NCBI RefSeq assembly: GCF_001457595.1 | Contig: NZ_LN831039.1 | Span: 5,700,001-5,732,000, forward strand | Direction: 5' to 3' | Length of the DNA stretch: 32,000 nucleotides | Origin: Mycolicibacterium smegmatis | Lineage (GTDB): Bacteria; Actinomycetota; Actinomycetes; Mycobacteriales; Mycobacteriaceae | Shown: one piece after another, positions 13,331-32,000 of the stretch | Layout of the letters: each line of letters begins with the position of its first letter | How positions within the stretch are numbered: the first letter of the stretch is position 1 | Position numbers and translations under genes: made by a program | Notes under the pieces: model-generated | Seen by the model: only the letters and a program-made list of their open reading frames with translations | Database searches by the model: none | Told to the model about the DNA's origin: nothing

Positions 13331-14359
13331 TCAGCCCTGTGCGCTGGGGTAACGCGCCGCCAGCACGTTGCGGTGCGCACGCGGCGACCCGAACAGCGAG
13401 CGGTTGAGCGCGGCCCGTTTGAGGTAGGTGTGCACACCGCTTTCCCACGTGTAGCCGATACCACCGTGCAACTGCATGGCCTTGCCCGCGACGCCCACAG
13501 CCGCTTCTGTTGCATACGATTTGGCTTTCGCGACGGTGTGCGCATCCGGTGCGCTGATCGCGCCGGCGATTAACTGCCGCGCCGCCGTGACCTGCACCAG
13601 CATGTCGGCGCACGCGTGCTTGACGGCCTGGAAAGAGCCGATGGGACGGCCGAACTGCTGCCGCATGGACGCGTAGGACACCGTCGCGTCGAGCATGGCT
13701 GCTGCGATACCGAGGCTGTCGCACGCCACGGCCAGCGCGGCGCGCCGGGCCAGCGCGTGCGGGTCTTCGAGGGGCCACACGTCACGAGCCTCGGCGCCGT
13801 CGGCCTCGACGATCGCGAGCCTACGGGTCTCGTCGAGCACGGGTTGCTCGATGACCGTCGCCGCCGCGTCGACGAGCACCGTCGTACCCGTGGCGTCGCG
13901 CGCGGGCAGCAGCAACCGGTGCGCGTCGCCGGCGTCCGGCACGAATGCCGCGCGGCCGTGCACGCGCCCGTCGGTGGTCACGGTGAACGGGACCCGCGGG
14001 TCACCGGGTACCAGGTCGCCGGGTAACGCGAGCGACACGCGCGTGCGGCCCTCGACGACCTCGGTGAGTAGGTTGTCGCGGGAAGTGTTGGGCGCCACCG
14101 CGAGTAGCGCGCCGACGCCGAGTACGGCGCCGCCGAGGTAGCCGGTGGTGGCTGCGGCACGGCCCAGTTCCTCGCAGATGACGGCCACCTCGGCGAACGT
14201 GGCACCCGCTCCGCCCAGGGACTCCGGCGCGTCGAGGCCGACCCAGCCCGCCTGCACCAGCAGCGGCCAGTCGACGCTGTCCTTCGCGAGCAGATCAGCT
14301 GCCACCGAACGGAGTTCGTCGTGGATCGCTGAGAAGTCTGTAGTGAAGTCTGTCATCAC
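13331..14359 (-). CDS. Acyl-CoA dehydrogenase-fold protein, putative beta (non-catalytic) subunit of a heteromeric ACAD
   Basis: The 342-aa product has an ACAD C-terminal helical domain (QFGRPIGSFQAVKHACADM, LHGGIGYTWE) but lacks the SEPEAGSD loop and the G-W-x-V...E-R block of its upstream partner. Its start overlaps the partner's stop. Confidence 0.8.
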   Translation of the reverse strand: MMTDFTTDFSAIHDELRSVAADLLAKDSVDWPLLVQAGWVGLDAPESLGGAGATFAEVAVICEELGRAAATTGYLGGAVLGVGALLAVAPNTSRDNLLTEVVEGRTRVSLALPGDLVPGDPRVPFTVTTDGRVHGRAAFVPDAGDAHRLLLPARDATGTTVLVDAAATVIEQPVLDETRRLAIVEADGAEARDVWPLEDPHALARRAALAVACDSLGIAAAMLDATVSYASMRQQFGRPIGSFQAVKHACADMLVQVTAARQLIAGAISAPDAHTVAKAKSYATEAAVGVAGKAMQLHGGIGYTWESGVHTYLKRAALNRSLFGSPRAHRNVLAARYPSAQG

Positions 14360-15531
14360 ACCGCACTCGGCTCTCGCGGCAGGCCCAAACCCCGCTCACC
14401 GATGATGGTGCGCTGGATCTCGCTGGCCCCGCCGGGGATGGTCCATTCCCAAGAGCCGATGAAGTCGAGCATCCACGCCCCCGATTCCCATCCGCTCGAC
14501 GCGGGTTTGGTCAGCACGGTGTGCGCGGGCAGCCCGGCGATCTGGGCGCCGAAGTCCGTCATCCGTTGCAGCAGTTCGCTGTAGTACAGCTTGACGATCG
14601 AGGCGTCGGCTGGGCCTGCCTTGCCGGTTTCGCTGCGTTCGACCAGGTCGCGGCACAGTCCGCGCAGGCCGGTGAGCTCGATCTCGAACTGCGCCAGCTG
14701 ATCCGCGATGAGCGCATCGTCCACCGGCGAGCACGCGTCCACAAGCCAGCGGAACCCTGCGTTGCCGAGACGTTCGGCGAGCTCGAGCATGGTCATGCCG
14801 CGTTCGGCACCCAGCGTCGCCTGCGCGACCTGCCAACCCTTGTTCACCGGGCCCACGAGGTTGGCGGCCGGGATCGCGACGTCGTTGAGGAAGATCTCGC
14901 AGAAATGCGAATCGCCGACCGCGTTGCGGATCGGACGCACATCGACGCCCGGCGACTTCATGTCCATCAGGAAGTAAGAAATGCCGTGGCGCTTCGGCGC
15001 ATTCGGGTCGGTGCGGGCCAGCAGCAGGCACCAGTCGGCGTGCATGGCTCCGCTGGCCCACAGCTTCTGCCCGTTGACGACGAAGGTGTCGCCCTCGGCG
15101 CGGGCCGTGGTGCGCAGCGACGCCAGATCCGAACCGGCCTCGGGTTCGGAGAAGCCCTGTACCCAGATCTCGCCGTCGAGGATCGCGGGCAGGTGCCGGT
15201 TGCGCTGTGCGTCTGTGCCCGCGGCGAGCAGCGTCGACGCGGCGTGGTGGATGCCGACGAACGCCAGTACGAGGCGGGGCGCGTCGTGTGCCGCGAGTTC
15301 GGAGTACAGCACGATCTGCTGCGGAACCGACATGCCGCCGCCCCACTCGGCGGGCCAGTGCGGTACGGCGTAGCCGGCGCTGTGCAACTCGGCGAACCAC
15401 GCCTTCTGGAACGCCGCGAATTCGTCGTCGCTCACGCCGGTTTGGGCCGCGCGCCAGTCTTTGGGGACGTGCGCGGCGCACCAGTCGCGCACCGTGGCGC
15501 GGAAGTCGTCCAAGTTTTCGGGGTGGGTCAC
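14356..15531 (-). CDS. Acyl-CoA dehydrogenase, putative alpha (catalytic) subunit
   Basis: Motifs QGFSEPEAGSDLASLRTTA, GQKLWASGA, NKGWQVAQATLGAERG and GGASEIQRTIIGE are present. The GTG start overlaps the hydratase stop (GTGA). Confidence 0.9.
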   Translation of the reverse strand: MTHPENLDDFRATVRDWCAAHVPKDWRAAQTGVSDDEFAAFQKAWFAELHSAGYAVPHWPAEWGGGMSVPQQIVLYSELAAHDAPRLVLAFVGIHHAASTLLAAGTDAQRNRHLPAILDGEIWVQGFSEPEAGSDLASLRTTARAEGDTFVVNGQKLWASGAMHADWCLLLARTDPNAPKRHGISYFLMDMKSPGVDVRPIRNAVGDSHFCEIFLNDVAIPAANLVGPVNKGWQVAQATLGAERGMTMLELAERLGNAGFRWLVDACSPVDDALIADQLAQFEIELTGLRGLCRDLVERSETGKAGPADASIVKLYYSELLQRMTDFGAQIAGLPAHTVLTKPASSGWESGAWMLDFIGSWEWTIPGGASEIQRTIIGERGLGLPREPSAV

Positions 15532-16307
15532 TTGTGTGCCTTCTTCTTGAACGCGAGCAGGCGTGCGCGGTGGTCGTCGCTGCGCATGCTGACCTGCTCG
15601 GCCGCGAAGCCGGCTTGCAGTGGTCCGCTGAGCACCTGCGACAGGTACATGTTGACGACGCGTTTGGTTCCCTGCAGCGCCTCGACGGGCTGCTTGGCCA
15701 GCCGGTGCGCGAGTGTCATTGCCTCACTGCGCAGTTGGCCGGGGGCGACGCTGCGGCTCGCGAGGCCCAACTCGACGGCCTTGCCGGCGTCGATCCGGTC
15801 GCCGGTGTAGAGGAACTCCCGCGAGCGCATGATGGGCGTCAGCAGCGGCCACAGTGCCGCGCCGCCGTCGCCGGCCACCAGGCCCACCGACACGTGCGGA
15901 TCCGCGAGGTAGGCGTCCTCGGAGATCAGCAGGATGTCGCACAACAGCGCGACGCTGCAACCCAATCCGACCGCGGGACCGTTGACCGCGGCGATCACCG
16001 GCAGCGGGAAGCGCAGCATCTCCTCGATGATCTGCGCGCCTTCGCGGATGCTCTCGTCACGCGCGACCGGATCGTCGAGGAACGTTGTGATCCAGCCCAG
16101 GTCGCCGCCCGCGCTGAACGCGCGGCCCGCGCCGGTGAGCACGACGACCTTGGCGTCCTTGTCGGCGGCGAGTTGTCGCCACACGTTGGCCAGCGCCCAG
16201 TGCAGTTTCTCGTTGACGCTGTTGAGGTCGGTCTCGCGGTTGATCGTGACGATGCGCACGGGCCCGTCGGTGGACACGCTGAGTTCGTCGGGCACGTCGT
16301 AGTTCAT
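15528..16307 (-). CDS. Enoyl-CoA hydratase/isomerase (crotonase) family
   Basis: The 259-aa product from MNYDVPDE has VLTGAGRAFSAGGDL and AAVNGPAVGLGCS oxyanion-hole motifs. The ORF-track version (to 16469) adds an unsupported extension that overlaps the upstream gene. Confidence 0.9.
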   Translation of the reverse strand: MNYDVPDELSVSTDGPVRIVTINRETDLNSVNEKLHWALANVWRQLAADKDAKVVVLTGAGRAFSAGGDLGWITTFLDDPVARDESIREGAQIIEEMLRFPLPVIAAVNGPAVGLGCSVALLCDILLISEDAYLADPHVSVGLVAGDGGAALWPLLTPIMRSREFLYTGDRIDAGKAVELGLASRSVAPGQLRSEAMTLAHRLAKQPVEALQGTKRVVNMYLSQVLSGPLQAGFAAEQVSMRSDDHRARLLAFKKKAHK

Positions 16308-17224
16308 GAGAACAGCCCCGTGAGCCCGCGCCGGCCCACACGCCTGGTGAGAATGTCGCGCGTGGTGGAGATCCCGAACGGCAGGCGCCGCAACGGCTGG
16401 CTGTGCCGCGACAGCCACGACAGCGTGGTCTCGTCGCAGAAGCCGACCGCACCGTGGAGTTGGTGGCACACCCGGAACACGACCTCGGCGGCCTCGATCG
16501 CCGCCAGGCGCAACGCGAGCGCATCGTCGACGACCTCGGTGGTGTCATGTCGGGTGAGGCCCCACAGCGCGTGTTTGGCGAGGATGTCGACGCCACTGCG
16601 TTCCACCTCGGCGTCGGTGAGCTGGAACTGCACGCCCTGGAACGACGACAGTGTCTGGCCGAACTGCTTGCGCAGGCTCACGTGCGCGACCGTGAGATCG
16701 ACGGCGCGGTCCAGCAGACCCAGCAGCGTCCAACTGCCCAGCACCAGACCGAGCGCCACGTCGCCGGCGCCCTGAGCGTCGATCTCGACGAGGTCCAGTG
16801 CGGTGGTGAACGCCGGCCCGGTCGCGCCGAGGCGAGTGACCGTGCTGCGCGTGCCGTCCAATGTGACGGCGGCCCAGCGCAGATCGAGCCCTGCGAGCGC
16901 GGCTTCGGGTGTACCGTCGGCCACCACGATGAGCCCGTCGACATCCAGATCGGTCGGCCGCGCCAGGCGTTCGGCGACCGGATACGGCAGCGCCCAGTAC
17001 CCGGCGCTGCGGCACAGCGCGGCCGCGGCCTCCAGCGCGTCGGCATCCGATCGCGGGTCCAGGTCCCAGGCCCCGAGCCCGTCGAGTACAGGACCGACCA
17101 GGCCCTGGCGGGCATCGGGTTTGGCCTCGGCCTGTTGCAGCAGTTCGTCGCCGCCCGCGGACTCGAAGGCCCGGAGGGCCTGGTGGCCGAACTCTTCGGC
17201 ATCGTCGGACAGATCGAGAATCAT
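16304..17224 (-). CDS. Acyl-CoA dehydrogenase-fold protein, putative beta subunit of a second heteromeric ACAD
   Basis: The 306-aa product has only the ACAD C-terminal-type region (LRKQFGQTLSSFQGVQFQLTDAE, QLHGAVGFCDE). ATGA overlaps occur at both ends. Confidence 0.75.
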   Translation of the reverse strand: MILDLSDDAEEFGHQALRAFESAGGDELLQQAEAKPDARQGLVGPVLDGLGAWDLDPRSDADALEAAAALCRSAGYWALPYPVAERLARPTDLDVDGLIVVADGTPEAALAGLDLRWAAVTLDGTRSTVTRLGATGPAFTTALDLVEIDAQGAGDVALGLVLGSWTLLGLLDRAVDLTVAHVSLRKQFGQTLSSFQGVQFQLTDAEVERSGVDILAKHALWGLTRHDTTEVVDDALALRLAAIEAAEVVFRVCHQLHGAVGFCDETTLSWLSRHSQPLRRLPFGISTTRDILTRRVGRRGLTGLFS

Positions 17225-18378
17225 CGGGCGGCTCCTGCGAACATGGTGCGCGACAACAGGATGCGCTGCATCTCGATGCTGCCCGAGGACACCGTGGACG
17301 CCTGCGAATAGCGCCAGTGATCCTCGACCTCGGCGCGGAAGTACTCAGTGCGCTGGTCTCCACCGCGCGGCAGCGCCGCGGCGATTTCCATGAGCACCTC
17401 CGCGCTTTCCTGGTCCAGTCGGGTCACCGCGATCCGATAGGCCGCGGAGTCACCGGGATTCACGCGTCCGGTGGCCTGCATCGCCACCACGCGGTACGCC
17501 ATGAGCCGGGCACGACGGCAGTGTGTGAGCATGCGGGTCCACCGGCCGCGCAGTTCGGCGGGCAACTGATCCCATGCGTCGCCCAGCACGTCGGGCGCGG
17601 CCTGCAGCAGGCGCTCGCAGCGCGCGTAGCGGGCGATGCCCACACGCTCGAACGACACCACGTCCTGCACGATCTTCCAGCCCTCGTCGACCGTGCCCAA
17701 CACATCAGCCTCGGTGACCTCGAGATCGTCGAAGAACACCTCGTTGAGGTGATGTGGGCCCATCATGGTGCGGATGGGCCGCACCGTGATCGCCGGATCG
17801 TCCATGGAGACAAGGAAGATCGTCAAACCCTGCTGCTTTTTCTCACCTCTGGACGTCCGCGCCAACAGGAAGCACCACTGCGCCATGGTCGCGTAGGACG
17901 TCCAGATCTTCTGGCCGTTGATACGCCACCCGTCGTCGACGCGCCGCGCCGAGGTGCGCAGCGAAGCCAGGTCGGAGCCAGCCTCGGGTTCGGAAAACCC
18001 CTGGCACCAGATGACCTCGCCGTTGGCGATCGGCGGCAGGTGCTTGCGCTGCTGCTCCTCGGTGCCGTACCGCATGATGATCGGGCCCACCCAGTTGACG
18101 CCCATGTACTGCGCGCCGCGCGGTTCGTGGTGCGCCCACATCTCCTCGCGCACCACGGTCTGTTCCCACACCGATGCATCCCCGCCACCGAACTCCCGAG
18201 GCCACGACATGCACAGCAGTTGCCGTTCGGCCAGGGTGCGGCAGAACTGTTGTGCCACCGCCAGATCGGCGGGGTTGTCGGTGAACGCACCGAGGAAGTC
18301 CGCGGGCACATGCTCGTCGATGAGCGCGCGCAGTTCACCGCGCAACCGGTTGGCGTCCTCGCCCAGATCGAAATCCAC
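17221..18378 (-). CDS. Acyl-CoA dehydrogenase, putative alpha subunit of the second pair
   Basis: The 385-aa product from GTG 18378 (VDFDLGED) has QGFSEPEAGSDLASLRTSA, GQKIWTSYA, EGWKIVQDVVSFERVG and SGSIEMQRILL. The ORF-track extension to 19104 overlaps the CoA-transferase gene in another frame. Confidence 0.9.
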   Translation of the reverse strand: MDFDLGEDANRLRGELRALIDEHVPADFLGAFTDNPADLAVAQQFCRTLAERQLLCMSWPREFGGGDASVWEQTVVREEMWAHHEPRGAQYMGVNWVGPIIMRYGTEEQQRKHLPPIANGEVIWCQGFSEPEAGSDLASLRTSARRVDDGWRINGQKIWTSYATMAQWCFLLARTSRGEKKQQGLTIFLVSMDDPAITVRPIRTMMGPHHLNEVFFDDLEVTEADVLGTVDEGWKIVQDVVSFERVGIARYARCERLLQAAPDVLGDAWDQLPAELRGRWTRMLTHCRRARLMAYRVVAMQATGRVNPGDSAAYRIAVTRLDQESAEVLMEIAAALPRGGDQRTEYFRAEVEDHWRYSQASTVSSGSIEMQRILLSRTMFAGAAR

Positions 18379-18389
18379 TGTCGCCTCTC

Positions 18390-19541
18390 TCAGCCGGCTT
18401 TGTTCTGTGGGCGCACCTCGGCCAGCATGTCTTCGGTGTCGGCACCGAGTTCCGGCGCGAAGCCCCTGACGTGTCCCGGTGTCTTCGAGAACCACGTCGG
18501 CACCCCCGGAAACCGCACCGGGCCGTACTGGGTGTCGACGGTCTCGAACAACCCGACGGCGGCCAGGTGCGGATTGTCGAAGAGCGCGTCGGGGGTGTGG
18601 ATCGGCGCGGCCGGAATCTCCAGATCTTCGAACAGGTCCAGCCATTCGGCCGTCGTGCGTTCCTTGAGTGTCTGTGCCAGCAGGCCGTACACGGTGTCGA
18701 TCTGACGGGCGCGGGCCTCCAGCGTGGCGTACTCGGGGCGGTTCCACGGCGGTTGCACGGCGTCGATGAACGCGTTCCAGTGCTTGTCGTTGTAGATCAG
18801 CGCAGCGATGTGCCCGTCCTTGGTCTCGTACGGCCTGCGGTTGGGCGCGACGGTGCGCGGATACACCGCGGGTCCCAGCGGCGGGTCGAACATGGCGCCG
18901 TTGGCGTGCTCGACGAGCATGAACGCCGCCATGGTCTCGAACATGCCGACCTCGACCTCCTGTCCCTCGCCCGTGCGTTCGCGGTGGAACAGCGCCATCA
19001 TCGTGGAGTACAGCGCGGTCAGGCCCGCGACCTTGTCGGCCATGATGGTGCCGACGTAGGCGGCCTCCCCCGTCAATTGCTTTTGCACTGCGGGAAGACC
19101 ACATTCGGCCTGGATGGTGTCGTCGTAGGCGGGGCGGTCGGCGTCGGGGCCGCGCCTGCCGTAGCCGTAGCAGTTGGTGTAGACGATGCGCGGGTTGATC
19201 GCGGCGACGTCGTCGTAGCCGAAGCCGAGTTTCGCGATGGCCTTGGCCCGCATGGAGTGGATGAACACGTCGGCGTCGGCGATCAGGTCACGCAGGTCGG
19301 CCTTGCCGGACGCGGTCCGCAGATCCAGCACGATGCTGCGCTTGCCACGGTTGACGTTGACGAACACACCGCTGAGTCCCGGCGCCGGGCCGACCGAGAC
19401 GTAGCGCGTGTCGTCGCCCTGCGGGGGTTCGACTTTGATGACGTCGGCACCCATGTCGGCCATGATCTGCGTGCAGTACGGGCCCATCACCATCGCGGTG
19501 AGGTCGATGACACGGACACCCTGCAAGGGACCGCCGGTCAT
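18390..19541 (-). CDS. Family III CoA-transferase (CaiB/BaiF type)
   Basis: N-terminal GPLQGVRVIDLTAMVMGPYCTQIMADMGADVIKVEPP and NVNRGKRSIVLDL are hallmark family III motifs. Confidence 0.9.
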   Translation of the reverse strand: MTGGPLQGVRVIDLTAMVMGPYCTQIMADMGADVIKVEPPQGDDTRYVSVGPAPGLSGVFVNVNRGKRSIVLDLRTASGKADLRDLIADADVFIHSMRAKAIAKLGFGYDDVAAINPRIVYTNCYGYGRRGPDADRPAYDDTIQAECGLPAVQKQLTGEAAYVGTIMADKVAGLTALYSTMMALFHRERTGEGQEVEVGMFETMAAFMLVEHANGAMFDPPLGPAVYPRTVAPNRRPYETKDGHIAALIYNDKHWNAFIDAVQPPWNRPEYATLEARARQIDTVYGLLAQTLKERTTAEWLDLFEDLEIPAAPIHTPDALFDNPHLAAVGLFETVDTQYGPVRFPGVPTWFSKTPGHVRGFAPELGADTEDMLAEVRPQNKAG

Positions 19542-20458
19542 GATCCGACCCCCTGCGCCGCTTGCGCAAAGCTGTAGCGGATGTGCTCCGCGTGCCCGTC
19601 GGGAACCACGGGGAACGTCACCGGTGCCGAGATGTCGCGGATCTCGTCGATGCGTTCACCCACCTGCTCGACGGTCCACGACGGCTGGTACACGCCGGGG
19701 CTCTCGACGAGCGCGGCACGGCCGATACGCCCGGCGATCGCGACGAGGTATTCGCCGGTGACCGAACAGGTTTCGTGTGCGAGCCAGCCGACCGCGGGCG
19801 CCACCAGGTCCGGGCCCATGGGCGGATATGCCGACGTGTCGAGGCCCTCGGCCATGCGGGTCACGGCACCTGGGATGATCGCGTTGCACGTCACGCCGTC
19901 GGCCGCGCCCTCGAGGGCGACGACGTTGCACAACCCGAGAATCCCGGCCTTGGCTGCGGCGTAGTTGACCACACCGTGGTTGCCGTACAGGCCGCCGATC
20001 GACGACGTCAGCACCACACGGCCGTAACCGGCGTCGCACATGACCGGAAACGCCGGGCGCACCACGTGATAGGCACCGCGCAGGTGCACGTCGAGGACCG
20101 CGTCGAAATCGTCGTCACCGAGTTCCCGCAGCGATCCGCGCCGCACGTTGCCCGCGTTGTGGATCAGGATGTCGACGCGGCCGTAGTGCTCGAGCGCGGT
20201 GTCGACGATGGCCCTGCCGCCCGCCGCGGTCGCGACGGAATCGGTCGACGCGACGGCTCGCCCACCGGCGGCGACGATCTCCTCGACCACGGCGTGCGCC
20301 GGCGCCTCGTCCGACCCGTCGCCGGTCAGGCTGACCCCGGCGTCGTTGACCACCACCTTGGCGCCGCGCGCCGCCAGGAGCAGCGCGTACTCGCGGCCCA
20401 GCCCCCGGCCGGCTCCGGTGACCACGGCGACACGGTCATCGAATCTGAGTGCGCTCAC
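19538..20458 (-). CDS. Short-chain dehydrogenase/reductase, MFE-2-like 3-hydroxyacyl-CoA dehydrogenase type
   Basis: The 306-aa product from GTG 20458 has VAVVTGAGRGLGREYALLLAARGAKVVVND, NAG and the YAAAK catalytic motif. A C-terminal extension of about 60 aa is present. Confidence 0.85.
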   Translation of the reverse strand: MSALRFDDRVAVVTGAGRGLGREYALLLAARGAKVVVNDAGVSLTGDGSDEAPAHAVVEEIVAAGGRAVASTDSVATAAGGRAIVDTALEHYGRVDILIHNAGNVRRGSLRELGDDDFDAVLDVHLRGAYHVVRPAFPVMCDAGYGRVVLTSSIGGLYGNHGVVNYAAAKAGILGLCNVVALEGAADGVTCNAIIPGAVTRMAEGLDTSAYPPMGPDLVAPAVGWLAHETCSVTGEYLVAIAGRIGRAALVESPGVYQPSWTVEQVGERIDEIRDISAPVTFPVVPDGHAEHIRYSFAQAAQGVGS

Positions 20459-24900: not shown

Positions 24901-25746
24901 CTAGGGCTGCGTTATGGCCGCACGGAAGTTGTCGTCTTTGAGGAACAGCGAGGTGTTGTCGGCCCCGAGGTGGGTCCAGCGCAGGTTGAGCCCACCGTCG
25001 ACCAGCAGGGTCTGGCCCGTGACGTAGTTGGACAGATCCGACAGTAGGAACAGGATGGCGCCGGCCTGCTCGTCGGGCGTTCCGCGCCGGCCCATCGCGA
25101 TCGCGCGCCCGTCGCGCTCGGGATCGGCGTCGACATATGTTGCCGAAGCGGCGGTTTCGGTGACGCCGGGTGCGACGGCGTTGACACGGATACCGGCCGC
25201 CGCGAGTTCCACGGCCATGGTGCGCGTGGCGGCGACGATCGCGGCTTTCGCGGTGCCATAGGCGATGTGGAACGGCGCGGTGTTCATACCGCTGATCGAG
25301 GACACCGACACGATCGATCCCGGGTCGCCGTTGTCGCGGATCTCCGCCGCGACGGCCTGGCTCATGAAGAACATCGTCTCGAGGTTGGCGGTGAACAACT
25401 CCCGCCAGTCGGCGCGTGAGACCCGCGTGGCAGGCATCCACGTGGACGGCGCCGCCCCGCCCGCGACGTTGACCAGGCCGTAGAGCCTGCCGTCGGTGCG
25501 CCGCACGGCGTCGAGCACGGTGGCGATGCCGTCATCGGTGGACGCGTCGGCCGCCACGGTCACCACCGAGAGTCCCTTGTCGGCCAACGGACCCACGTGC
25601 GTGTCGAGGTTGTCCTGTGAACGACTGACCGCCACAACCGTGGCGCCCGCCTCGGCGGCCATGCGCGTGACGGTGGTGCCGATGCCGCCGCCACCGGCAC
25701 CCGACACCACCACGATGCGGCCGTCGAGGTTCAGCAGTTTGTCCAT
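24901..25746 (-). CDS. Short-chain dehydrogenase/reductase, first gene of the minus-strand operon
   Basis: VVVSGAGGGGIGT, NVAG and the catalytic YGTAKAA motif are present. Confidence 0.9.
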   Translation of the reverse strand: MDKLLNLDGRIVVVSGAGGGGIGTTVTRMAAEAGATVVAVSRSQDNLDTHVGPLADKGLSVVTVAADASTDDGIATVLDAVRRTDGRLYGLVNVAGGAAPSTWMPATRVSRADWRELFTANLETMFFMSQAVAAEIRDNGDPGSIVSVSSISGMNTAPFHIAYGTAKAAIVAATRTMAVELAAAGIRVNAVAPGVTETAASATYVDADPERDGRAIAMGRRGTPDEQAGAILFLLSDLSNYVTGQTLLVDGGLNLRWTHLGADNTSLFLKDDNFRAAITQP

Positions 25747-25754
25747 GATGCTAT

Positions 25755-25766
25755 TTGTCCGGACAA
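25755..25766. promoter_or_regulatory. Perfect 12-bp palindrome TTGTCCGGACAA (candidate GntR-family operator O1)
   Basis: Lies in the roughly 40% GC divergent intergenic region, 9 bp from the SDR start codon. It has the GT...AC core typical of GntR-family sites. Confidence 0.6.
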
Positions 25767-25776
25767 CATATGGTGC

Positions 25777-25791
25777 TCTTCATATTGAAGA
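25777..25791. promoter_or_regulatory. 15-bp palindrome TCTTCA-TAT-TGAAGA
   Basis: A second, unrelated inverted repeat in the same divergent region. It is AT-rich and could be a site for a different regulator or part of a promoter. Confidence 0.4.
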
Positions 25792-25849
25792 ACACTATTC
25801 CGCAGGCATTATTCGGCCGTCAAGGGCGTCTACGGATACTTTCGATCTA

Positions 25850-25861
25850 TTGTCTGGACCA
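25850..25861. promoter_or_regulatory. Imperfect copy TTGTCTGGACCA of the O1 palindrome (candidate operator O2)
   Basis: Shares TTGTC-yG-GAC with O1 (10 of 12 positions). It ends 1 nt before the ATG at 25863 of the propeller gene. The O1-O2 centre-to-centre distance is 95 bp. Confidence 0.5.
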
Positions 25862-25862
25862 C

Positions 25863-27491
25863 ATGCAGTTGCTAACGTCCGACACTGTGACTTCGCCGAT
25901 CTCCCTCGGAAACGCCGCGCCTGCCCGCTACACCGCGAATCCCTCGGTGGCCGAGGGCTGGCATCTGCGGCAGGTCACGGCGCCGAGCCGCCTGTTCGGG
26001 GCGAACGGCCTGCGCACGGGTCCGGACGGCCGGGTCTACGTCGCCCAGGTGACCGGCAGCCAGATCAGCGCCCTCGACATCGTCACCGGCGAGCTGCAGA
26101 CCGTGGCCGCCAGGGGTGGCGACATCATCGCGCCCGACGACGTCGCGTTCGACATCCGCGGCAACCTGTACGCCACCGAGGTCATGGACGGCCGGGTGAG
26201 TGTCCGCGAACCGAACGGCACCACGCGGGTGCTGCGCGACGACGTGCCGTCGGCCAACGGCATCACGTTCCACGAGGGCAGGCTGTTCATCGGCGAATGC
26301 CGCGAAGGCGGACGGCTTCTCGAGTTCGACCTGGCCGGCGGACCACCCCGTGTGCTGCTGGAGAACGTGCCGTCACCCAACGCCATGGAGGTCGGCCCCG
26401 ACGGGCTGCTCTACTTCCCGGTGATGGGCGCCAACGAGATCTGGCGCATCCACCCCGACGGCGGCACCCCTGAGGTGGTGGCCACGGGTCTGGGCGTGCC
26501 CGACGCGGTGAAGTTCGGCGCCGACGGACACCTTGTCTCCACGCAGGTCGCCAGTGGCCAGGTGCTGCGCATCGATCCACGCAGCGGTGAGCAGACCGTG
26601 CTGGCACAGCTCACACCCGGCCTGGACAACCTCACGTTCGCCGACGGGCGCCTGTTCGTCTCCAACTTCACCGGCGCCATCACCGAGATCATGGGCGACG
26701 GTACGACGCGGGATTTCCTCGGCGGTGGACTCAACTGGCCGCTGGACCTCACGGTCGGCGCCGACGGTGCGGTCTACGTCGCCGACGGCACGTACTTCTA
26801 CCGTGTCGGGCCCGACGGATCGCTCGACACCGTCGGCATGCTGTTCTCACCGGGCTACCCGGGCTTCCTGCGTGGCGTGATCGCAGGCGGTGCGGGCGAA
26901 TTCATCGTCACCACGGCCGCCGACACCGTCGCGCGCTACCGTCCGGGATCCGACGAGAGCGAGCCGCTCGCGGCCGGTGTCGACCAACCGTACGGCGTCG
27001 CACTCGCGCCGGACGGGACTGTGGTGGTCGTCGAGCAGGGCGCCGGGCGACTGCTCGCGGTGCGACCGGGATCCGTCGACCTACTCGCCGACGGTCTCGA
27101 CACCCCGGTGGGCGTGGCGATCGGGCCGGACGGCGCACCGCTGGTGTCGGTCGCGGGTGCCGTCCTGCGTGTCACCGGCACGGGCGTGGAACCTCTGGTG
27201 GACGGGTTGCACACGCCGCAGGGACTTCTCGTGCGCGACGGTGCGTTGTACCTCGTCGACGCGGGCAGCAAGGACCTGATCAGCGTCGACCTGACCACCG
27301 GCGTACGCACCACCATCGCGTCCGGACTGCCCGTCGGCCCGCCGCCCGGTGTGGTGCCCAAACCGCTCAAGGGCATGCCGCCGTTCTCCGGGCCGCAGGG
27401 CCCGTTCGCCGGGATCGCCGCGGGCCCCGATGGGACGCTGTACATCTCGGCCGACGGCGACGGCAGCGTGCTCGCGCTGCAACGCAGGTAG
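25863..27491 (+). CDS. Tandem beta-propeller protein (SMP-30/gluconolactonase/LRE-like or NHL-type repeats, about 12 blades), a candidate lactonase or hydrolase
   Basis: The 542-aa product carries 10 or more recurrences of G-[PA]-D-G-x-[LV]-[YFV]-[VF] at roughly 40-45 aa spacing (GPDGRVYVAQ, GPDGLLYFPV, GADGHLVSTQ, FADGRLFVSN, GADGAVYVAD, APDGTVVVVE, GPDGAPLVSV, RDGALYLVDA, GPDGTLYISA). No signal peptide is present. Confidence 0.75.
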   Translation: MQLLTSDTVTSPISLGNAAPARYTANPSVAEGWHLRQVTAPSRLFGANGLRTGPDGRVYVAQVTGSQISALDIVTGELQTVAARGGDIIAPDDVAFDIRGNLYATEVMDGRVSVREPNGTTRVLRDDVPSANGITFHEGRLFIGECREGGRLLEFDLAGGPPRVLLENVPSPNAMEVGPDGLLYFPVMGANEIWRIHPDGGTPEVVATGLGVPDAVKFGADGHLVSTQVASGQVLRIDPRSGEQTVLAQLTPGLDNLTFADGRLFVSNFTGAITEIMGDGTTRDFLGGGLNWPLDLTVGADGAVYVADGTYFYRVGPDGSLDTVGMLFSPGYPGFLRGVIAGGAGEFIVTTAADTVARYRPGSDESEPLAAGVDQPYGVALAPDGTVVVVEQGAGRLLAVRPGSVDLLADGLDTPVGVAIGPDGAPLVSVAGAVLRVTGTGVEPLVDGLHTPQGLLVRDGALYLVDAGSKDLISVDLTTGVRTTIASGLPVGPPPGVVPKPLKGMPPFSGPQGPFAGIAAGPDGTLYISADGDGSVLALQRR

Positions 27492-27497
27492 GCGACG

Positions 27498-28235
27498 GTG
27501 ACCGTCTCCCCCGCCGAACACCGCTACCTGCAGGTGGCGCGCACGCTGCGCAAGGAGATCGTGGACGGCGTGTACCCCGTGGGCTCGCACCTGCCCACCG
27601 AGCACGAACTGTGTGAGCGTTTCGAGGTCAGCCGCTACACCATCCGCGAGGCGCTGCGGCGCCTGCGCGACGACAACCTGGTGGAGTCGCGTCCGCGCGC
27701 AGGCACCACGGTGGTGCCCCGACCCACGACCAACTCCTATGCGCAGGACGTCATGTCGATCAACGATCTGTTGGCGTTCGCGACCGGGGCGCAGTTCACG
27801 ATCGACTCCAACGCCATGGTCACCATCGACGACGAACTCGCCGAGCGCACCGGCCTTCCGGTCGACGAGGAATGGCTCGCGGTGCGGGGGTACCGGCAGG
27901 CCGAGGGCAACAAGCCGCCGGTGTGCCGCACCGAGTACTACATCAACCGGTCATTCGCCGCGGTCGGCCGGTTGTTGCAGCGCCACACCGGTCCGATCTT
28001 CCCGCTGATCGAGGATCTGTTCGGCGTCAGCGTCGTCGAGGTGCATCAACAGATCACCGCGGTGCTGGTGGACACCGATCTCGCCGAACTGCTCAAGGTC
28101 TCCCCCGGCACCGCCGCGCTGCAGATGCAGCGCACCTACACCACATCCGACGGTGAGATCGCGCAGGTGACCGTCAACACCCATCCCTCCGGCCGGTACC
28201 GGCACTCCATGACGATGCGCCGGGTCAAGGGCTGA
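27498..28235 (+). CDS. GntR-family transcriptional regulator, HutC subfamily (UTRA effector domain)
   Basis: The N-terminal wHTH is LPTEHELCERFEVSRYTIREALRRLRDDNLVESRPRAGTTV. The C-terminal part of about 160 aa is of UTRA type. The start is GTG. Confidence 0.9.
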   Translation: MTVSPAEHRYLQVARTLRKEIVDGVYPVGSHLPTEHELCERFEVSRYTIREALRRLRDDNLVESRPRAGTTVVPRPTTNSYAQDVMSINDLLAFATGAQFTIDSNAMVTIDDELAERTGLPVDEEWLAVRGYRQAEGNKPPVCRTEYYINRSFAAVGRLLQRHTGPIFPLIEDLFGVSVVEVHQQITAVLVDTDLAELLKVSPGTAALQMQRTYTTSDGEIAQVTVNTHPSGRYRHSMTMRRVKG

Positions 28236-28236
28236 C

Positions 28237-29769
28237 ATGCGCGCCGAGGACGCCTACGAACGCGGGCTGTGGGTACGGACCACGCTGGCCGATACGCTCG
28301 CCGAGGCCGCGCGGGACACACCGCAACGGGTGCTGCTGATCGACGGAGACGTGCGGCTGACGTGCGCCGAACTGCACAGCCGGGCAAAGGCTCTCGCGCA
28401 CGACATGGCGGCCCGGATGCCCGCGGGCAGCGTGGTGTCGTTCATGCTGCCCAACTGGCACGAGGCCGCGATCGTCTACCTCGCGTCGACGCTGGCCGGT
28501 ATGGTGATCAACCCGATCCTGCCGTCGCTGCGCGACCACGAACTGCGGTTCATCCTCGACGACGCAGCAAGCCGCATGATCTTCATCCCCGGCGAGTTCG
28601 GGCAGCACGACTACGCCGCGATGCTGCAGCGGGTGTGTGCGCACCTGCCGACACCGCCGCAGGTGGTCGTGGTGCGTGGTGAGCCCGGACCGCACACGGC
28701 GTTCACGGCACTGGGTGCCCCGGGTGGCGATCTGCCTGCGCTCGACCCCGACTCCGTGCGCATGATGATGTACACCTCGGGCACCACCGGCCGCCCCAAA
28801 GGGGTCTTGCACAGCCACAATTCGATCCACGCGCTCATCTGTCAGCTGCGTGAGAACTGGATGATCGATCCGGGCGACACCTTCCTGGTGCCGTCACCCA
28901 TCGCCCACATCGGCGGCTCGATCTACGCGTTCGAATGCCCGCTGTTGCTCGGGACCACAGCCGTGCTGATGCAGCGGTGGAACGCCGACGACGGTGTGGT
29001 GCTCATGTCCGAACACCACTGCACCCACATGGCCGGGGCGACACCGTTTCTCGATCAACTGCTCAATGCCGCCGAGCGCGCGGGCACACGCCTGCCCGAT
29101 CTCAAGGTGTTCATCTGCGGCGGCGCGTCGGTGCCGCCTTCGCTCATCCGGCGTGCGTCGACCTGTTTCGAGAAGGCCGTGGTGAGCCGCGTGTACGGGT
29201 CCACCGAGGTGCCCGTCACCACCGTCGGATCGATCGAGCCCGGCGATGTCGAGCACGCCGCGTGCACCGACGGCCGGCCCGGCCTCGCCGAGATCCGGTT
29301 GGTGGACGGCGAGATCCGGGCGCGCGGGCCGCAGATGCTGCTGGGTTATCTGCATGCCGAGGACAACGCATTCGACGAGCAGGGTTTCTTTCGCACCGGG
29401 GACCTCGGCCGCTGGGTCGACGGCGACTACCTCACGGTCACCGGCCGCGCCAAGGACCTCATCATCCGCAACGGCGAGAACATCTCACCCAAGGAGATCG
29501 AGGACATCCTGGTCGGCGAGCTGGGTATCAACGAGATCGCCGTGGTGGGTCTGCCCGATGAGCGCACCGGTGAGCGGGCGTGCGCGGTGGTGGTCACCGA
29601 AGACGGTGCGCGACCCGACGTCTCGGCATTGGCCGAGGTGCTCACCAAGGCCGGAGTCGCCAAGTTCAAGATCCCCGAGCAGGTGGAGATCTGGGACGCC
29701 CTGCCCAGGAACGATGCGGGCAAGGTGCTCAAACACCAGATCCGGACACAGTTGTCGAAGGTGGAGTAG
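28237..29769 (+). CDS. AMP-dependent acyl-CoA synthetase/ligase
   Basis: The AMP-binding motif YTSGTTGRPKGVLHSH is present, plus GYLH...FRTGDLG, RAKDLIIRNGENISPKEIE and the terminal GKVLKH. Confidence 0.92.
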   Translation: MRAEDAYERGLWVRTTLADTLAEAARDTPQRVLLIDGDVRLTCAELHSRAKALAHDMAARMPAGSVVSFMLPNWHEAAIVYLASTLAGMVINPILPSLRDHELRFILDDAASRMIFIPGEFGQHDYAAMLQRVCAHLPTPPQVVVVRGEPGPHTAFTALGAPGGDLPALDPDSVRMMMYTSGTTGRPKGVLHSHNSIHALICQLRENWMIDPGDTFLVPSPIAHIGGSIYAFECPLLLGTTAVLMQRWNADDGVVLMSEHHCTHMAGATPFLDQLLNAAERAGTRLPDLKVFICGGASVPPSLIRRASTCFEKAVVSRVYGSTEVPVTTVGSIEPGDVEHAACTDGRPGLAEIRLVDGEIRARGPQMLLGYLHAEDNAFDEQGFFRTGDLGRWVDGDYLTVTGRAKDLIIRNGENISPKEIEDILVGELGINEIAVVGLPDERTGERACAVVVTEDGARPDVSALAEVLTKAGVAKFKIPEQVEIWDALPRNDAGKVLKHQIRTQLSKVE

Positions 29770-30543
29770 ATGCAGGTAGCCATCATCACGGGAGCCAGCA
29801 GCGGTATCGGGTTCGGTTGTGCCACAAAGCTCGCCGAAGCCGGTATGGCCGTGCTCGGGGTCGGCCGCGACAAGGAGCGTCTGGCCGAACTCGCGCAGAC
29901 GATCGACGCGCCGGACCGGGTGGCCACCCTGGCGCTCGACCTCACCGATGACGACGCCCCGCAACGCATCGTCGACGCCGCCGTCACGCGATGGGGCAAG
30001 GTCGACTTCCTGATCAACAACGCCGGTGTCGGCAGCCCCAAACCCCTGCACGAGACCGACGACGAATCCCTCGACTATTTCCTGGGTCTCATGCTGCGCG
30101 CGCCGTTCCGCCTGGCGCGCGACGTGATCCCGCACATGGGGCCGGGTTCGGCGATCATCAACGTGACGTCGACGTTCGCGGTGGTCGGCGGTCTGCGCGG
30201 CGGCGCTTACTCGGCCGCCAAGGGCGGACTCACCGCGCTCACCACCCACATCGCATGCCAGTACGGTGCACAGGGAATCCGCTGCAACGCCGTCGCACCC
30301 GGCGTCACCCTCACCCCGATGGTCGCGACGCGACTGGAAGACGACCGGTTCCGAAAGATCAACACCGAGATGACCCCGCACCAGCGCCTCGGCCGCGTCG
30401 AGGACGTCGCGAGCACCGTGGCGTTCCTGTGTTCTGAGGGCGGCAGCTTCATCAACGGGCAGACCATCGTCGTCGACGGCGGGTGGAGTTCGACGAAGTA
30501 CCTGTCCGACCACGCACTGAACTCGGATTGGGTTCCGCGGTGA
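29770..30543 (+). CDS. Short-chain dehydrogenase/reductase
   Basis: AIITGASSGIG, NNAG and YSAAKGG are present. The ATG immediately follows the ligase TAG. Confidence 0.9.
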   Translation: MQVAIITGASSGIGFGCATKLAEAGMAVLGVGRDKERLAELAQTIDAPDRVATLALDLTDDDAPQRIVDAAVTRWGKVDFLINNAGVGSPKPLHETDDESLDYFLGLMLRAPFRLARDVIPHMGPGSAIINVTSTFAVVGGLRGGAYSAAKGGLTALTTHIACQYGAQGIRCNAVAPGVTLTPMVATRLEDDRFRKINTEMTPHQRLGRVEDVASTVAFLCSEGGSFINGQTIVVDGGWSSTKYLSDHALNSDWVPR

Positions 30544-32000
30544 ACCTTTTCGGCCTGCTGGATCAGACCGCGGCACGCCACGGTGACCGGGGTGCGGTGT
30601 TCTGTGGTGAGCGTGAGCTGTACACGTGGACACAACTGCGTGACCGCGCGGCCCGTCTGGGTTCTACGCTCACCGAACCCGGCACACGCGTCGCGGTGGC
30701 GAGTGAGAACCGGCCCGAGATCATCGAGATCATGTTCGGGGTGTGGGCCGCCGAGTGTGTGTACGTGCCCATCAACTACAAGCTGCACCCGCGGGAGATG
30801 GCCGACATCCTCGCCGATTCCGGTGCGGCGCTGGTGTTCGCGTCACCGAAGATCGCACCCGGGCTTTTTGAGGTCACCGACGTTCCCGTCGAGGTCGTCG
30901 GCACCGACGCCTACACGCAGCGGTTCGAATCCGAGCCGGTGCCGGCGCCGCTGACCGATCCGGCCGAGCTCGCGTGGCTGTTCTACACGAGCGGCACCAC
31001 CGGTAAGTCCAAGGGCGCCATGCTCTCCCACCGCAACCTCATGGCGATGACGGTGGCGCATCTGGCGGATTTCGACGCGCCCGACGAGTTCTGCAGCCTG
31101 GTGCACGGCGCGCCGATGTCCCACGGGTCGGGGCTGTACATCCCGCCGTACGTGCTACGCGGTGCGCGCCAGGTGATCCCGGAATCGGGCGCGTTCGAAC
31201 CCGACGAGTTCCTGGACCTGTGCGATCACCATCCCGGTTGCAGCGCGTTCCTGGCACCGACCATGGTGCAGCGGCTCATCCAGACCGGACGGCCGAGGCC
31301 CGCGAATCTGCGGACCGTGGTCTACGGCGGCGGGCCGATGTACGTCGACAGCCTCAAGAAGGCGCTCGCGGCGTACGGGCAGATCTTCGTGCAGCTCTAC
31401 GGGCAGGGCGAGGCGCCCATGACCATCACGGGCCTGCGCCGCGACGACCACCTCGATGCCGACGACGCGACGCTGGGCTCGGTGGGGTATCCCCGCTCGG
31501 GTGTCCAGGTTGCGGTGCTGCGCGCCGACGGCACGCCCGCCGACATCGGCGAGATCGGCGAGATCGTGTGCCGCGGTGACGTCGTCATGAGCGGTTACTG
31601 GAACAACCCGGAGGCCACCGCAGCCACGCTCAAGGACGGGTGGCTGCACACCGGCGACATGGGCTCGTTCGACGCGCGTGGCCACCTCACACTGCGCGAC
31701 CGGTCCAAGGACGTCGTGATCAGCGGCGGCAGCAACATCTATCCCCGCGAGGTCGAGGAGGTCCTGCTCGAGCACCCCGGCGTGGTCGAGGCCGGCGTCG
31801 TCGGCGCGCCCGATGCCGAGTGGGGCGAGATCGTGGTGGCGTTCGTCGTCACCAACGGGACCCCGGTGGACGCGGCCGCACTCGACGCGCACCTGCTGGA
31901 ACGCATCGCGCGGTTCAAGCGCCCCAAGCGGTACGAGTTCATCGATGCGCTGCCCAAGAACAGTTACGGCAAGGTGCTCAAGCGTGAACTCCGCGAGCGG
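30540..32000 (+). CDS. Second AMP-dependent acyl-CoA synthetase/ligase, 3'-truncated by the window edge and absent from the supplied ORF track
   Basis: My own translation from GTG 30540 (GTGA overlap with the SDR stop) gives VNLFGLLDQTAARHGDRGAVFCGERELYTW...LFYTSGTTGKSKGAMLSHRNL...GWLHTGDMGSFDARGHLTLRDRSKDVVISGGSNIYPREVEEVLLEHPGV...RFKRPKRYEFIDALPKNSYGKVLKRELRER. All 487 codons are open to base 32000. Confidence 0.9.
   Translation, partial: MNLFGLLDQTAARHGDRGAVFCGERELYTWTQLRDRAARLGSTLTEPGTRVAVASENRPEIIEIMFGVWAAECVYVPINYKLHPREMADILADSGAALVFASPKIAPGLFEVTDVPVEVVGTDAYTQRFESEPVPAPLTDPAELAWLFYTSGTTGKSKGAMLSHRNLMAMTVAHLADFDAPDEFCSLVHGAPMSHGSGLYIPPYVLRGARQVIPESGAFEPDEFLDLCDHHPGCSAFLAPTMVQRLIQTGRPRPANLRTVVYGGGPMYVDSLKKALAAYGQIFVQLYGQGEAPMTITGLRRDDHLDADDATLGSVGYPRSGVQVAVLRADGTPADIGEIGEIVCRGDVVMSGYWNNPEATAATLKDGWLHTGDMGSFDARGHLTLRDRSKDVVISGGSNIYPREVEEVLLEHPGVVEAGVVGAPDAEWGEIVVAFVVTNGTPVDAAALDAHLLERIARFKRPKRYEFIDALPKNSYGKVLKRELRER

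Follow-up and report, generated by a model that had tools for sequence, protein, structure and literature searches.

Two back-to-back operons of Mycolicibacterium smegmatis form a broadly conserved, probably catabolic locus with a predicted HutC-type control

Introduction

What would a mycobacterium degrade with a Rieske oxygenase, a type I Baeyer–Villiger monooxygenase (BVMO), a luciferase-like flavoprotein (LLM), a double β-propeller and two pairs of acyl-CoA dehydrogenases (ACADs), all encoded side by side? The question is raised by a 32,000-nucleotide stretch of the Mycolicibacterium smegmatis genome (the whole of which we call the window), where 16 genes at 13331–32000 are arranged as two divergent operons. 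An earlier reading of this DNA, hereafter the original prediction, had listed these genes and joined their products into a complete catabolic route that it could match to no characterised pathway. Here we report that the locus is a real, compact and broadly conserved pair of back-to-back operons, and that comparison across loci strongly supports both operons as one regulon under the HutC-type regulator encoded among them, whose binding to two operator-like sites is predicted. As to what the locus does, our proposal, held with somewhat less than even confidence, is that these genes (MSMEG_5618–5633) are a single HutC/GntR-repressed regulon degrading a lipophilic compound, probably alicyclic or otherwise bulky and non-steroidal.

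No function is assigned to this 16-gene locus, although M. smegmatis serves as the standard genetic model among mycobacteria. Hundreds of environmental and opportunistic mycobacterial species share it, the M. avium complex and M. ulcerans among them, and identification of its substrate would extend the carbon-source repertoire of non-tuberculous mycobacteria.

Results

Sixteen genes form two tightly coupled operons

Raw open reading frame (ORF) lists of the window are noisy because its GC content is 64–70%; the gene model (Table 1) was built from a codon-position GC filter, Pfam matches and inspection of start codons. All 16 genes of the original prediction were recovered in the order and families given there, 11 in the minus-strand operon and five in the plus-strand operon. 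At six of the 10 minus-strand junctions start and stop overlap (by 4 nt in five cases, among them the ACAD β2 start and the ACAD α2 stop, and by 1 nt in one, where the ACAD β1 start and the ACAD α1 stop have one base in common), and the other four are gaps of 11–33 nt. On the plus strand the closest junction is an overlap of 4 nt and the widest a gap of 6 nt. Public contigs with an identical BVMO, on which genes were called independently, gave the same gene model, and the long ORFs of the BVMO, the LLM, ACAD α2, the crotonase and the second of three short-chain dehydrogenases/reductases (SDR2) were cut back to coupled starts that match those calls. The gene call on contig L001 places the stop codon of acyl-CoA ligase 2 about 12 nt past the window end and completes that protein at 490 aa.

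Locus tags were anchored at MSMEG_5605 (cytochrome bd subunit I), MSMEG_5616 (glyoxalase), MSMEG_5617 (MPT63), MSMEG_5623, MSMEG_5630 and MSMEG_5634. Gene counts from anchor to anchor agree, and the cluster therefore corresponds, by counting, to MSMEG_5618–5633. The tag MSMEG_5623 is anchored by residue D33, reported as mutated in that protein (drug-resistant mutants carry a single-nucleotide variant (SNV) in the gene; PMC6386362) and found in the CoA-transferase here. All parts of the cluster are catabolic enzyme types, with no polyketide synthase, nonribosomal peptide synthetase or transporter among them, and, as had been predicted, neither a thiolase nor an α/β-hydrolase is encoded within 13331–32000. 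No Rfam family was found anywhere in the window.

Both operons share a conserved control region

That the operons diverge from 25747–25862, as the original prediction held, is borne out by the coupling of their genes and by conserved regulatory sites that they share. An alignment of this control region from 77 loci has its conserved blocks at the operator-like sites, the −35 and −10 elements and a 23-bp inverted repeat, the remainder being variable, and every one of 75 orthologous intergenic regions examined has two sites with a GTCCnGAC core, spaced 95–97 bp apart. In non-mycobacterial loci, too, the TGTCCGGACA motif adjoins the genes for GntR, the propeller, SDR1 and the Rieske oxygenase, and the window holds no further credible operator copy. 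Within the 19.4 kb scanned, a sigma-70-like promoter match occurs in the control region only; no internal terminator was convincing, their count equalling the shuffled expectation.

The regulator itself matches the Pfam domains GntR (2.9e-21) and UTRA (1.7e-17), which places it in the HutC subfamily. The operator-like palindromes TTGTCCGGACAA and GTCCAGAC, which we take to resemble the DasR-type box, and the pairing of a GntR winged helix with UTRA liken this system to the HutC/DasR-type GntR repressors and their GT-N-AC operators; it differs from them in having two sites about 96 bp apart, each just before the start codon of a first gene, and a 23-bp inverted repeat over the −10 element. The protein is identical in sequence to the mc2 155 protein MSMEG_5630, a 245-aa product classified in silico as HutC; M. 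avium paratuberculosis, M. vanbaalenii and M. ulcerans have orthologues of it and M. tuberculosis has none (PMC2018728). Together these features strongly support the two operons as one regulon under their own HutC regulator, with operator binding predicted. The 23-bp inverted repeat is distinct from the GTCCnGAC operators and may be the site of a second regulator; no KstR-type box was seen on inspecting the conserved promoter and this repeat. One HutC regulator with two invariant operator-like sites would make a tractable regulatory handle on the locus.

Table 1. Genes and control elements of the locus, with positions in the window; 'by count' marks tags obtained by counting between anchors.
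Feature	Position	Strand	Evidence or description	Tag and remark
ACAD β1	13331–14356	minus	Pfam ACAD N- and C-terminal domains	MSMEG_5618 (by count); final gene of operon
ACAD α1	14356–15531	minus	Pfam, all three ACAD domains	MSMEG_5619 (by count)
Crotonase-family enoyl-CoA hydratase	15528–16307	minus	Pfam ECH_1 1.9e-36	MSMEG_5620 (by count); accessory
ACAD β2	16304–17224	minus	Pfam, C-terminal ACAD domain only; 306 aa	MSMEG_5621 (by count)
ACAD α2	17221–18378	minus	Pfam, all three ACAD domains	MSMEG_5622 (by count)
Family III CoA-transferase	18390–19541	minus	Pfam CoA_transf_3	MSMEG_5623; annotated 'L-carnitine dehydratase'
SDR2, MFE-2-type (3R)-hydroxyacyl-CoA dehydrogenase-like	19538–20458	minus	Solved-structure match	MSMEG_5624 (by count)
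Type I BVMO, N-terminally extended	20475–22313	minus	Motifs and PockeMO match	MSMEG_5625 (by count)
LLM, luciferase-like flavin-dependent oxidoreductase or monooxygenase	22310–23482	minus	Pfam Bac_luciferase 3.8e-52	MSMEG_5626 (by count)
α-only Rieske non-haem iron oxygenase	23479–24867	minus	Pfam Rieske and Ring_hydroxyl_A	MSMEG_5627 (by count)
SDR1, classical	24901–25746	minus	Pfam adh_short_C2 1.6e-53	MSMEG_5628 (by count); first gene of operon
Divergent control region	25747–25862		116 bp between both operons	
Operator-like site B	25755–25766		TTGTCCGGACAA, perfect palindrome	8 nt before SDR1 start codon
Inverted repeat, 23 bp	25773–25795		GTGTTCTTCAATATGAAGAGCAC	Overlaps −10
−10 element	25794–25799	minus	AATAGT	Serves minus operon
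−35 element	25818–25823	minus	TTGACG	Serves minus operon
Operator-like site A	25848–25861		TATTGTCTGGAC, related to site B	Directly before propeller start codon
Tandem double six-bladed β-propeller, predicted cytoplasmic	25863–27491	plus	Pfam Vgb_lyase and SGL	MSMEG_5629 (by count)
GntR/HutC regulator	27498–28235	plus	Pfam GntR and UTRA	MSMEG_5630
Acyl-CoA ligase 1	28237–29769	plus	Pfam AMP-binding and AMP-binding_C	MSMEG_5631 (by count)
SDR3, classical	29770–30543	plus	Pfam adh_short_C2 4.8e-61	MSMEG_5632 (by count)
Acyl-CoA ligase 2	30540–32000, runs past window end	plus	Pfam AMP-binding and AMP-binding_C	MSMEG_5633 (by count)

The locus has a constant core and exchangeable parts

A scan for the Rieske gene in a collection holding one genome per species returned at least 590 relatives, and the best 80 Rieske loci all come from Mycobacteriaceae or actinobacterial metagenome-assembled genomes (MAGs), at 83–89% identity. 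Our locus counts are counts of genomes and not of independent evolutionary events. The gene order recurs in 77 other loci. The constant core of the best loci consists of ligase 2, SDR3, ligase 1, the GntR regulator and the propeller on one side of the divergence and of SDR1, the Rieske oxygenase, the BVMO, SDR2 and the CoA-transferase on the other; its order is kept in at least 70 loci and in distant taxa, and the cluster is not a chance juxtaposition.

The 16 genes are nonetheless not one fixed unit, since the ACAD pairs are missing in about half of the orthologous loci and the crotonase is present in four of 80. An ACAD block occurs in about 37 loci, every named one from a fast grower, and is absent in slow growers such as M. 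colombiense, M. triplex and M. interjectum. Between its two pairs lies a slot that holds the crotonase in those four loci and a Gfo/Idh/MocA oxidoreductase in 11 and is empty in most. β-Oxidation by α/β ACADs and a crotonase is therefore a fast-grower add-on that lies outside the conserved pathway.

Nor is the LLM a fixed part of the cluster. It occurs in 11 of the 77 non-self loci and is mutually exclusive with a thiamine pyrophosphate (TPP) enzyme, which is encoded in 57 of the 60 LLM-lacking loci, in the same operon after the CoA-transferase or the ACAD block, and in none of the seven assessable LLM-containing loci. An aldehyde dehydrogenase gene follows that of the TPP enzyme in 32 loci, wherever the sequence covered reaches far enough (for example at 15348–18562 of L044, among the orthologous loci L004–L083). 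The M. smegmatis locus has the LLM and lacks the TPP enzyme, and there is no aldehyde dehydrogenase here. This alternation hints that the LLM and the TPP enzyme with its aldehyde dehydrogenase serve the same C–C cleavage or aldehyde-oxidation step, and the natural swap could reveal equivalent chemistries.

The distant loci narrow the core further. Orthologues of SDR2, the GntR regulator, the propeller, SDR1, the Rieske oxygenase, the LLM and the BVMO, at 63–77% identity, lie on contigs L085, L087 and L088 (GC 59–66%); the SDR2 orthologues of L085, L088 and L089 are at 67–69% and the LLM orthologues of distant loci at 71–77%. Locus L089 has SDR2, SDR1, the Rieske oxygenase and the propeller without a BVMO or LLM, and in L084, from a Rhodospirillaceae MAG, a Rieske orthologue stands with a MaoC hydratase, an ACAD pair, a crotonase, an esterase and a TonB receptor. 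SDR1 is directly upstream of the Rieske gene in all loci examined except L084. Some distant contigs have lactonase/esterase candidates nearby, namely a PTE-family protein and α/β hydrolases. From this content the deep core is therefore the Rieske oxygenase, SDR1, SDR2, the propeller and the GntR regulator, with the LLM and BVMO as usual companions.

Could the locus be several unrelated units, merely adjacent and with no common pathway? The ACAD block, the crotonase, the LLM and the TPP/aldehyde dehydrogenase pair do come and go among species, and a search in supplementary files of an M. smegmatis transcription-start-site study (PMC6448022) found none of these tags. Such a patchwork is nevertheless hard to square with a minus operon in which 10 of 10 junctions overlap or leave a gap of at most 33 nt, with a core order retained as widely as described above, with common conserved operators flanking both first genes, or with a single promoter-like site and no more terminators than shuffling yields, and we regard it as quite improbable.

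A Rieske protein unlike KshA, a type I BVMO and an LLM nearer to LuxA

The Rieske protein has the CxH…CxxH ligands of a [2Fe-2S] cluster and a 2-His-1-carboxylate iron site, and the residues concerned (C87-x-H89, C114-x-x-H117, H215-x4-H220 and D410) are invariant among 26 homologues. Among solved structures its best scores, about 1e-20, go to phthalate, carnitine and biphenyl oxygenases, and its AlphaFold model is of low confidence (pLDDT 36). No gene for a Rieske β-subunit, ferredoxin or reductase was found in any locus examined, which leaves an α-only Rieske enzyme remote from characterised ones. A KshA-type 3-ketosteroid 9α-hydroxylase was ruled out, as no KshA chain is among the 29 solved-structure matches of the protein at E ≤ 1e-5; a comparison with the side-chain Rieske enzyme of Sphingobium Chol11 is conceptual only, the Chol11 enzyme being a KshA homologue.

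The BVMO was correctly predicted as type I. It has the fingerprint FxGxxxHxxxWD (FGGHIFHSSRWD) at residue 217, the motif GGxWxxxxYPGxxxD (GGVWYWNRYPGIQCD) at residue 105 and Rossmann GxGxxG motifs at residues 75 and 252. PockeMO (5mq6) is its best solved relative, over the full length (4.2e-123), outranking phenylacetone, cyclohexanone and steroid monooxygenases and placing it in a clade of enzymes for bulky ketones; against the NCBIfam PtlE equivalog it scores 693 bits, below the cutoff of 1100. A BVMO for bulky substrates is of possible biocatalytic interest.

By contrast, the likeness to the camphor pathway that the original prediction had drawn proved weak. The LLM, which shares a 90%-identity cluster with the mc2 155 protein A0R3X2, is far nearer to LuxA-type alkanal monooxygenase, its best solved relative (6e-29), than to 3,6-diketocamphane monooxygenase (6e-6 only), and a camphor-type (type II) BVMO was ruled out on these values. 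Its top NCBIfam match is an F420 subfamily, under cutoff.

A double propeller is tied to the Rieske oxygenase and SDR1

The propeller of roughly 12 blades that had been predicted is confirmed by an AlphaFold (AF2) model (pLDDT 88.7) with 47 strands, whose fold is matched best by tandem pairs of six-bladed propellers of a generic kind. The N-terminal half is SGL/SMP-30-like, with a Pfam SGL match of 45 bits, above the gathering score, and the C-terminal half is NHL/PknD-like; the protein also matches the NCBIfam ScyD/ScyE family at 128.7 bits (cutoff 80). SGL hydrolases are six-bladed propellers with lactonase activity and a central metal site of Glu/Asn/Asn/Asp, and residues E106, N132, N173 and D214, candidates for such a site, are invariant. 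No signal peptide was evident in the N-terminus, read by eye. Starts at 25755 or 25770 were ruled out by the conserved operator, which lies directly before the ATG at 25863, and by the length of most annotated homologues, 530–545 aa.

The lactonase role proposed for this protein fared less well than its fold. SGL and Vgb family matches count in favour of the route proposed below. In L089 the propeller accompanies the Rieske oxygenase and SDR1 even without a BVMO, and a role as lactonase after the BVMO is therefore not secured. Being tied to the Rieske oxygenase and SDR1 and not to the BVMO, the propeller may act on the product of the former two and not on a BVMO lactone.

The CoA-dependent enzymes and two alternative substrates

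Adjacent and coupled genes, α proteins with three domains and β proteins that are degenerate in the middle (FAD) domain, where Pfam detected none, are the marks of α2β2-type ACADs. In the solved-structure comparison, which covered pair 1 only, ACAD α1 is nearest to Tcur3483 (5e-42) and ChsE4 (4x28_A) and ACAD β1 to Tcur3481 (4e-30) and ChsE5. The top NCBIfam match of ACAD α1 and ACAD α2 alike is PimC-large, under cutoff (206 bits for ACAD α2). Domains, overlaps and these matches thus uphold the earlier pairing, and the ACADs are supported as predicted α/β pairs, two more examples outside known steroid genes, the solved relatives of pair 1 being heterotetramers of the steroid type. The crotonase has a sub-threshold NCBIfam match to EchA19.

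SDR2 is, to judge by its sequence, an MFE-2-type dehydrogenase, as had been predicted, with (3R) specificity expected: it carries TGxxxGxG and YxxxK motifs, and its best solved relative is the Candida MFE-2 dehydrogenase (5.7e-104), followed by rat 17β-HSD4 (1.7e-64), with carveol-dehydrogenase-type SDRs among weaker matches. SDR1 has YxxxK at residue 163 and SDR3 has TGxxxGIG, NNAG and YxxxK motifs; both have sub-threshold NCBIfam matches to 7α-hydroxysteroid dehydrogenase. For CoA ligase 1 the best NCBIfam matches are medium-chain fatty-acid and cyclohexanecarboxylate CoA ligases, all under cutoff. The CoA-transferase matches CoA_transf_3 over its full length (387 bits). Its best solved relatives are formyl-CoA transferase (1e-56) and also succinate–hydroxymethylglutarate CoA-transferase, and with the racemase FAR at 3e-28 an α-methylacyl-CoA racemase was ruled out.

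Several of these matches would suit an accessory steroid-catabolic module acting on a steroid, a bile acid or a steroid fragment: the nearness of the ACAD pair to Tcur3483/3481 and ChsE4/ChsE5, the resemblance of SDR2 to 17β-HSD4/MFE-2, the hydroxysteroid dehydrogenase matches of SDR1 and SDR3, and a BVMO whose nearest solved relative, PockeMO, accepts steroids. The surroundings of the Rhodospirillaceae orthologue (MaoC hydratase, ACAD pair, crotonase and TonB receptor), too, resemble proteobacterial steroid clusters. However, the Rieske enzyme lacks a KshA match among solved structures at E ≤ 1e-5, the steroid-like ACAD block is missing in slow-grower loci, the regulator is HutC-type with no KstR-type box seen in the conserved promoter and, a weak point, such genes go unmentioned in a Mycobacterium phytosterol-response study. 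A steroid substrate accordingly has a rather small chance of being correct.

A different chemistry is suggested by the TPP enzyme, a member of the superfamily of acetolactate synthase (ALS), oxalyl-CoA decarboxylase (OXC) and 2-hydroxyacyl-CoA lyase (HACL). If the locus served to degrade methyl-branched (isoprenoid-type) acids or ketones by one-carbon α-oxidation and then β-oxidation, the Rieske enzyme would hydroxylate an acyl-CoA, although we know of no Rieske acyl-CoA 2-hydroxylase, and the TPP enzyme would, as a 2-hydroxyacyl-CoA lyase, free formyl-CoA. The aldehyde dehydrogenase and the second ligase would re-activate the shortened acid, the CoA-transferase, with formyl-CoA transferase as its best solved relative, would recycle formyl-CoA, and the BVMO would take methyl-ketone ends. 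The frequency of the TPP enzyme in LLM-lacking loci and the aldehyde dehydrogenase behind it fit such a scheme, and peroxisomal branched-chain oxidation, which uses an MFE-2-type dehydrogenase and ligases, offers a parallel to SDR2 and the two ligases. Yet the TPP enzyme is as near to acetolactate synthases as to HACL/OXC and reaches no equivalog cutoff, for which its firm assignment as a 2-hydroxyacyl-CoA lyase was downgraded; moreover, the genes for it and the aldehyde dehydrogenase are missing at the M. smegmatis locus, and the CoA-transferase is not racemase-like. We assign α-oxidation a low probability.

A tentative route for a bulky, non-steroidal compound

The reading that we prefer, a regulon for a lipophilic and probably alicyclic or otherwise bulky compound, can be set out as a route whose reaction steps all derive from enzyme-family membership. 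The α-only Rieske oxygenase would introduce oxygen with the help of a reductase encoded elsewhere, and SDR1, possibly with SDR3, would oxidise the resulting alcohol or alcohols to a ketone. The BVMO, of the PockeMO/CPDMO clade, would turn this ketone into an ester or lactone by oxygen insertion; the LLM might contribute at this step in M. smegmatis, and in most other mycobacteria the thiamine-dependent C–C-cleaving enzyme and the aldehyde dehydrogenase would replace it. The SGL-like double propeller would open or otherwise process the oxygenated intermediate, and the resulting acids would be activated by the two ligases and the dicarboxylate- or formyl-CoA-type CoA-transferase. Their shortening would fall to the MFE-2-type dehydrogenase, to which fast growers would add two ACAD pairs and M. 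smegmatis also the crotonase, with a thiolase supplied from elsewhere in the genome. An inducer presumably frees the GntR protein from the two operators that flank the shared promoter region.

Several observations weigh against this proposal. No protein reaches an NCBIfam equivalog cutoff, and therefore no substrate can be assigned. The order of steps may be wrong, given the propeller that accompanies the Rieske oxygenase and SDR1 without a BVMO in L089. The route is not self-contained, as a thiolase, an R-hydratase, a flavin reductase and a Rieske reductase are missing from the cluster; of the 'complete route' in the original prediction, the plausibility from enzyme families stands and the completeness does not. 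The LLM could be F420-dependent and reductive, and the negative search for these tags in supplementary files of PMC6448022 counts here as well.

A bolder extension, which we consider possible but doubtful, is that the Rieske oxygenase, SDR1, SDR2, the double propeller and the HutC regulator form the centre of a pathway, not described so far and widespread in soil bacteria, that serves an abundant natural compound of alicyclic or isoprenoid kind. The LLM and the TPP enzyme with aldehyde dehydrogenase would then be interchangeable for one C–C cleavage step, and in the tandem propeller one would have a novel kind of enzyme for opening rings or esters.

No characterised pathway was found to match the locus

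A like logic, alcohol to ketone to BVMO lactone, then hydrolysis to a (di)acid and β-oxidation, is that of the cycloalkanone lactone pathways (cddABCD of Rhodococcus ruber for cyclododecanone, cpd for cyclopentadecanone and chn for cyclohexanol). Their clade of long BVMOs with an N-terminal extension includes the BVMO here, and some annotations read 'cyclododecanone monooxygenase'. Those clusters, however, have α/β-hydrolase lactonases and alcohol and aldehyde dehydrogenases, lack a Rieske enzyme, a propeller, paired ACADs, a CoA-transferase and a HutC regulator, and are not collinear with ours. The monoterpene ketone pathway of R. erythropolis DCL14 runs through a carveol dehydrogenase of the SDR type, a BVMO, the lactone hydrolase MlhB, a second dehydrogenase and a CoA ligase; compared by description and not by sequence, it has a like order of enzymes and likewise feeds branched-acid β-oxidation, but is without the Rieske enzyme, propeller, CoA-transferase and α/β ACADs of the cluster here. 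The camphor pathway shares the combination of a type I BVMO, a luciferase-like flavoprotein and a CoA ligase, and OTEMO is a mid-ranking match of the BVMO; it differs in that the LLM here is marginal to the diketocamphane enzyme (6e-6) and dispensable in most orthologous loci. Adjacent α/β ACADs and an MFE-2-type dehydrogenase are also found among the actinobacterial enzymes for β-oxidation of the steroid side chain and rings C/D (ChsE4-ChsE5, IpdE1-IpdE2, EchA19 and Hsd4A/ChsB1), from which the locus is set apart by matches that are all sub-equivalog, by a HutC and not a KstR regulator, by a Rieske protein that is not KshA-like and by ACADs that are accessory.

One further lead, and no more than that, is M. 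tuberculosis Rv1933c–Rv1939 near mpt63, which we take to comprise fadE18, fadE17, echA13, an LLM, a Rieske-type gene, ephB and a flavin reductase gene. The order MPT63-like protein, ACAD β, ACAD α and crotonase on the minus strand would then be like that in the window at 12743–13222 and 13331–16307, and Rv1936 and Rv1937, beside fadE18-fadE17-echA13, are presumably the LLM and the Rieske-type oxygenase. M. tuberculosis is without an orthologue of MSMEG_5630 (PMC2018728).

The original prediction, which could match the gene order to no characterised pathway, was upheld: NCBIfam equivalog cutoffs were reached by none of the 16 proteins, and full-text searches on every MSMEG tag, orthologue tags and enzyme combinations, subscription-only literature lying outside their reach, found no functional study and no collinear characterised pathway. 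Papers on a 2-HIBA lyase cluster, on Ambrox and on Dietzia were set aside as parallels, being not collinear or uninformative. Mentions of the tags were incidental (the SNV and SigF dependence of MSMEG_5623, a mention of MSMEG_5625 and the GntR classification); MSMEG_5625 is reportedly named in a yeast two-hybrid interaction paper on phage Giles. The locus thus appears to be an orphan catabolic regulon, of known families in a combination undescribed before and apparently uncharacterised. Orphan catabolic clusters of familiar enzyme families are common in actinobacteria, and the surprise is for that reason moderate.

Neighbouring genes

Just past the window end and convergent to ligase 2 lies MSMEG_5634 (1–297 of L001), a START/SRPBCC gene; an SRPBCC gene is found beside the cluster in many species, and again in metagenomic locus L087. 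BVMO chemistry has been proposed for wax-ester mycolate formation, and the locus might be read as one that remodels an endogenous mycobacterial lipid, for instance a keto-lipid into a wax ester by Baeyer–Villiger oxidation, and not as one serving an external nutrient. Expression of MSMEG_5623 is SigF-dependent (PMC4694148), and the START-fold protein whose gene adjoins the cluster binds acyl-AcpM (PMC9014085), as lipid remodelling would allow. MSMEG_5634 is nevertheless in a separate, convergent operon (PMC9014085), the enzyme set is mostly of β-oxidation and CoA activation, and orthologous cores occur on non-mycobacterial contigs (GC 59–66%), including a Rhodospirillaceae MAG; the chance that the locus remodels a lipid is very slight. 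Given coupling, synteny, shared operators and presence outside mycobacteria, this reading and that of unrelated units are both unlikely.

Directly downstream of the minus operon, at 11129–13222 on the minus strand, are genes for an MPT63-like secreted DUF1942 protein (MSMEG_5617), a tandem glyoxalase-fold protein with a sub-threshold match to the AfsK-binding protein KbpA (MSMEG_5616) and a β-keto acid cleavage enzyme (BKACE); in other species the TPP enzyme holds this position. MSMEG_5616 and MSMEG_5617 are reported to be SigF- and zinc-responsive.

About 5 kb from the cluster, an Ltp/SCP-x-type thiolase gene (5402–6616, plus strand) and one for an RPE65-family carotenoid cleavage oxygenase (6620–8143, plus strand) have the look of a two-gene unit. 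The thiolase could supply the one missing from the cluster, or be unrelated. A subunit I of cytochrome bd-type oxidase, annotated MSMEG_5605 and reported to be SigF-dependent, is encoded at 2349–3737 on the plus strand. The plus-strand ORF at 8026–9093 has two HxlR-type helix-turn-helix matches; HxlR regulators are normally single-domain proteins of about 110–130 aa, and the ORF may be two genes or a mis-called long one.

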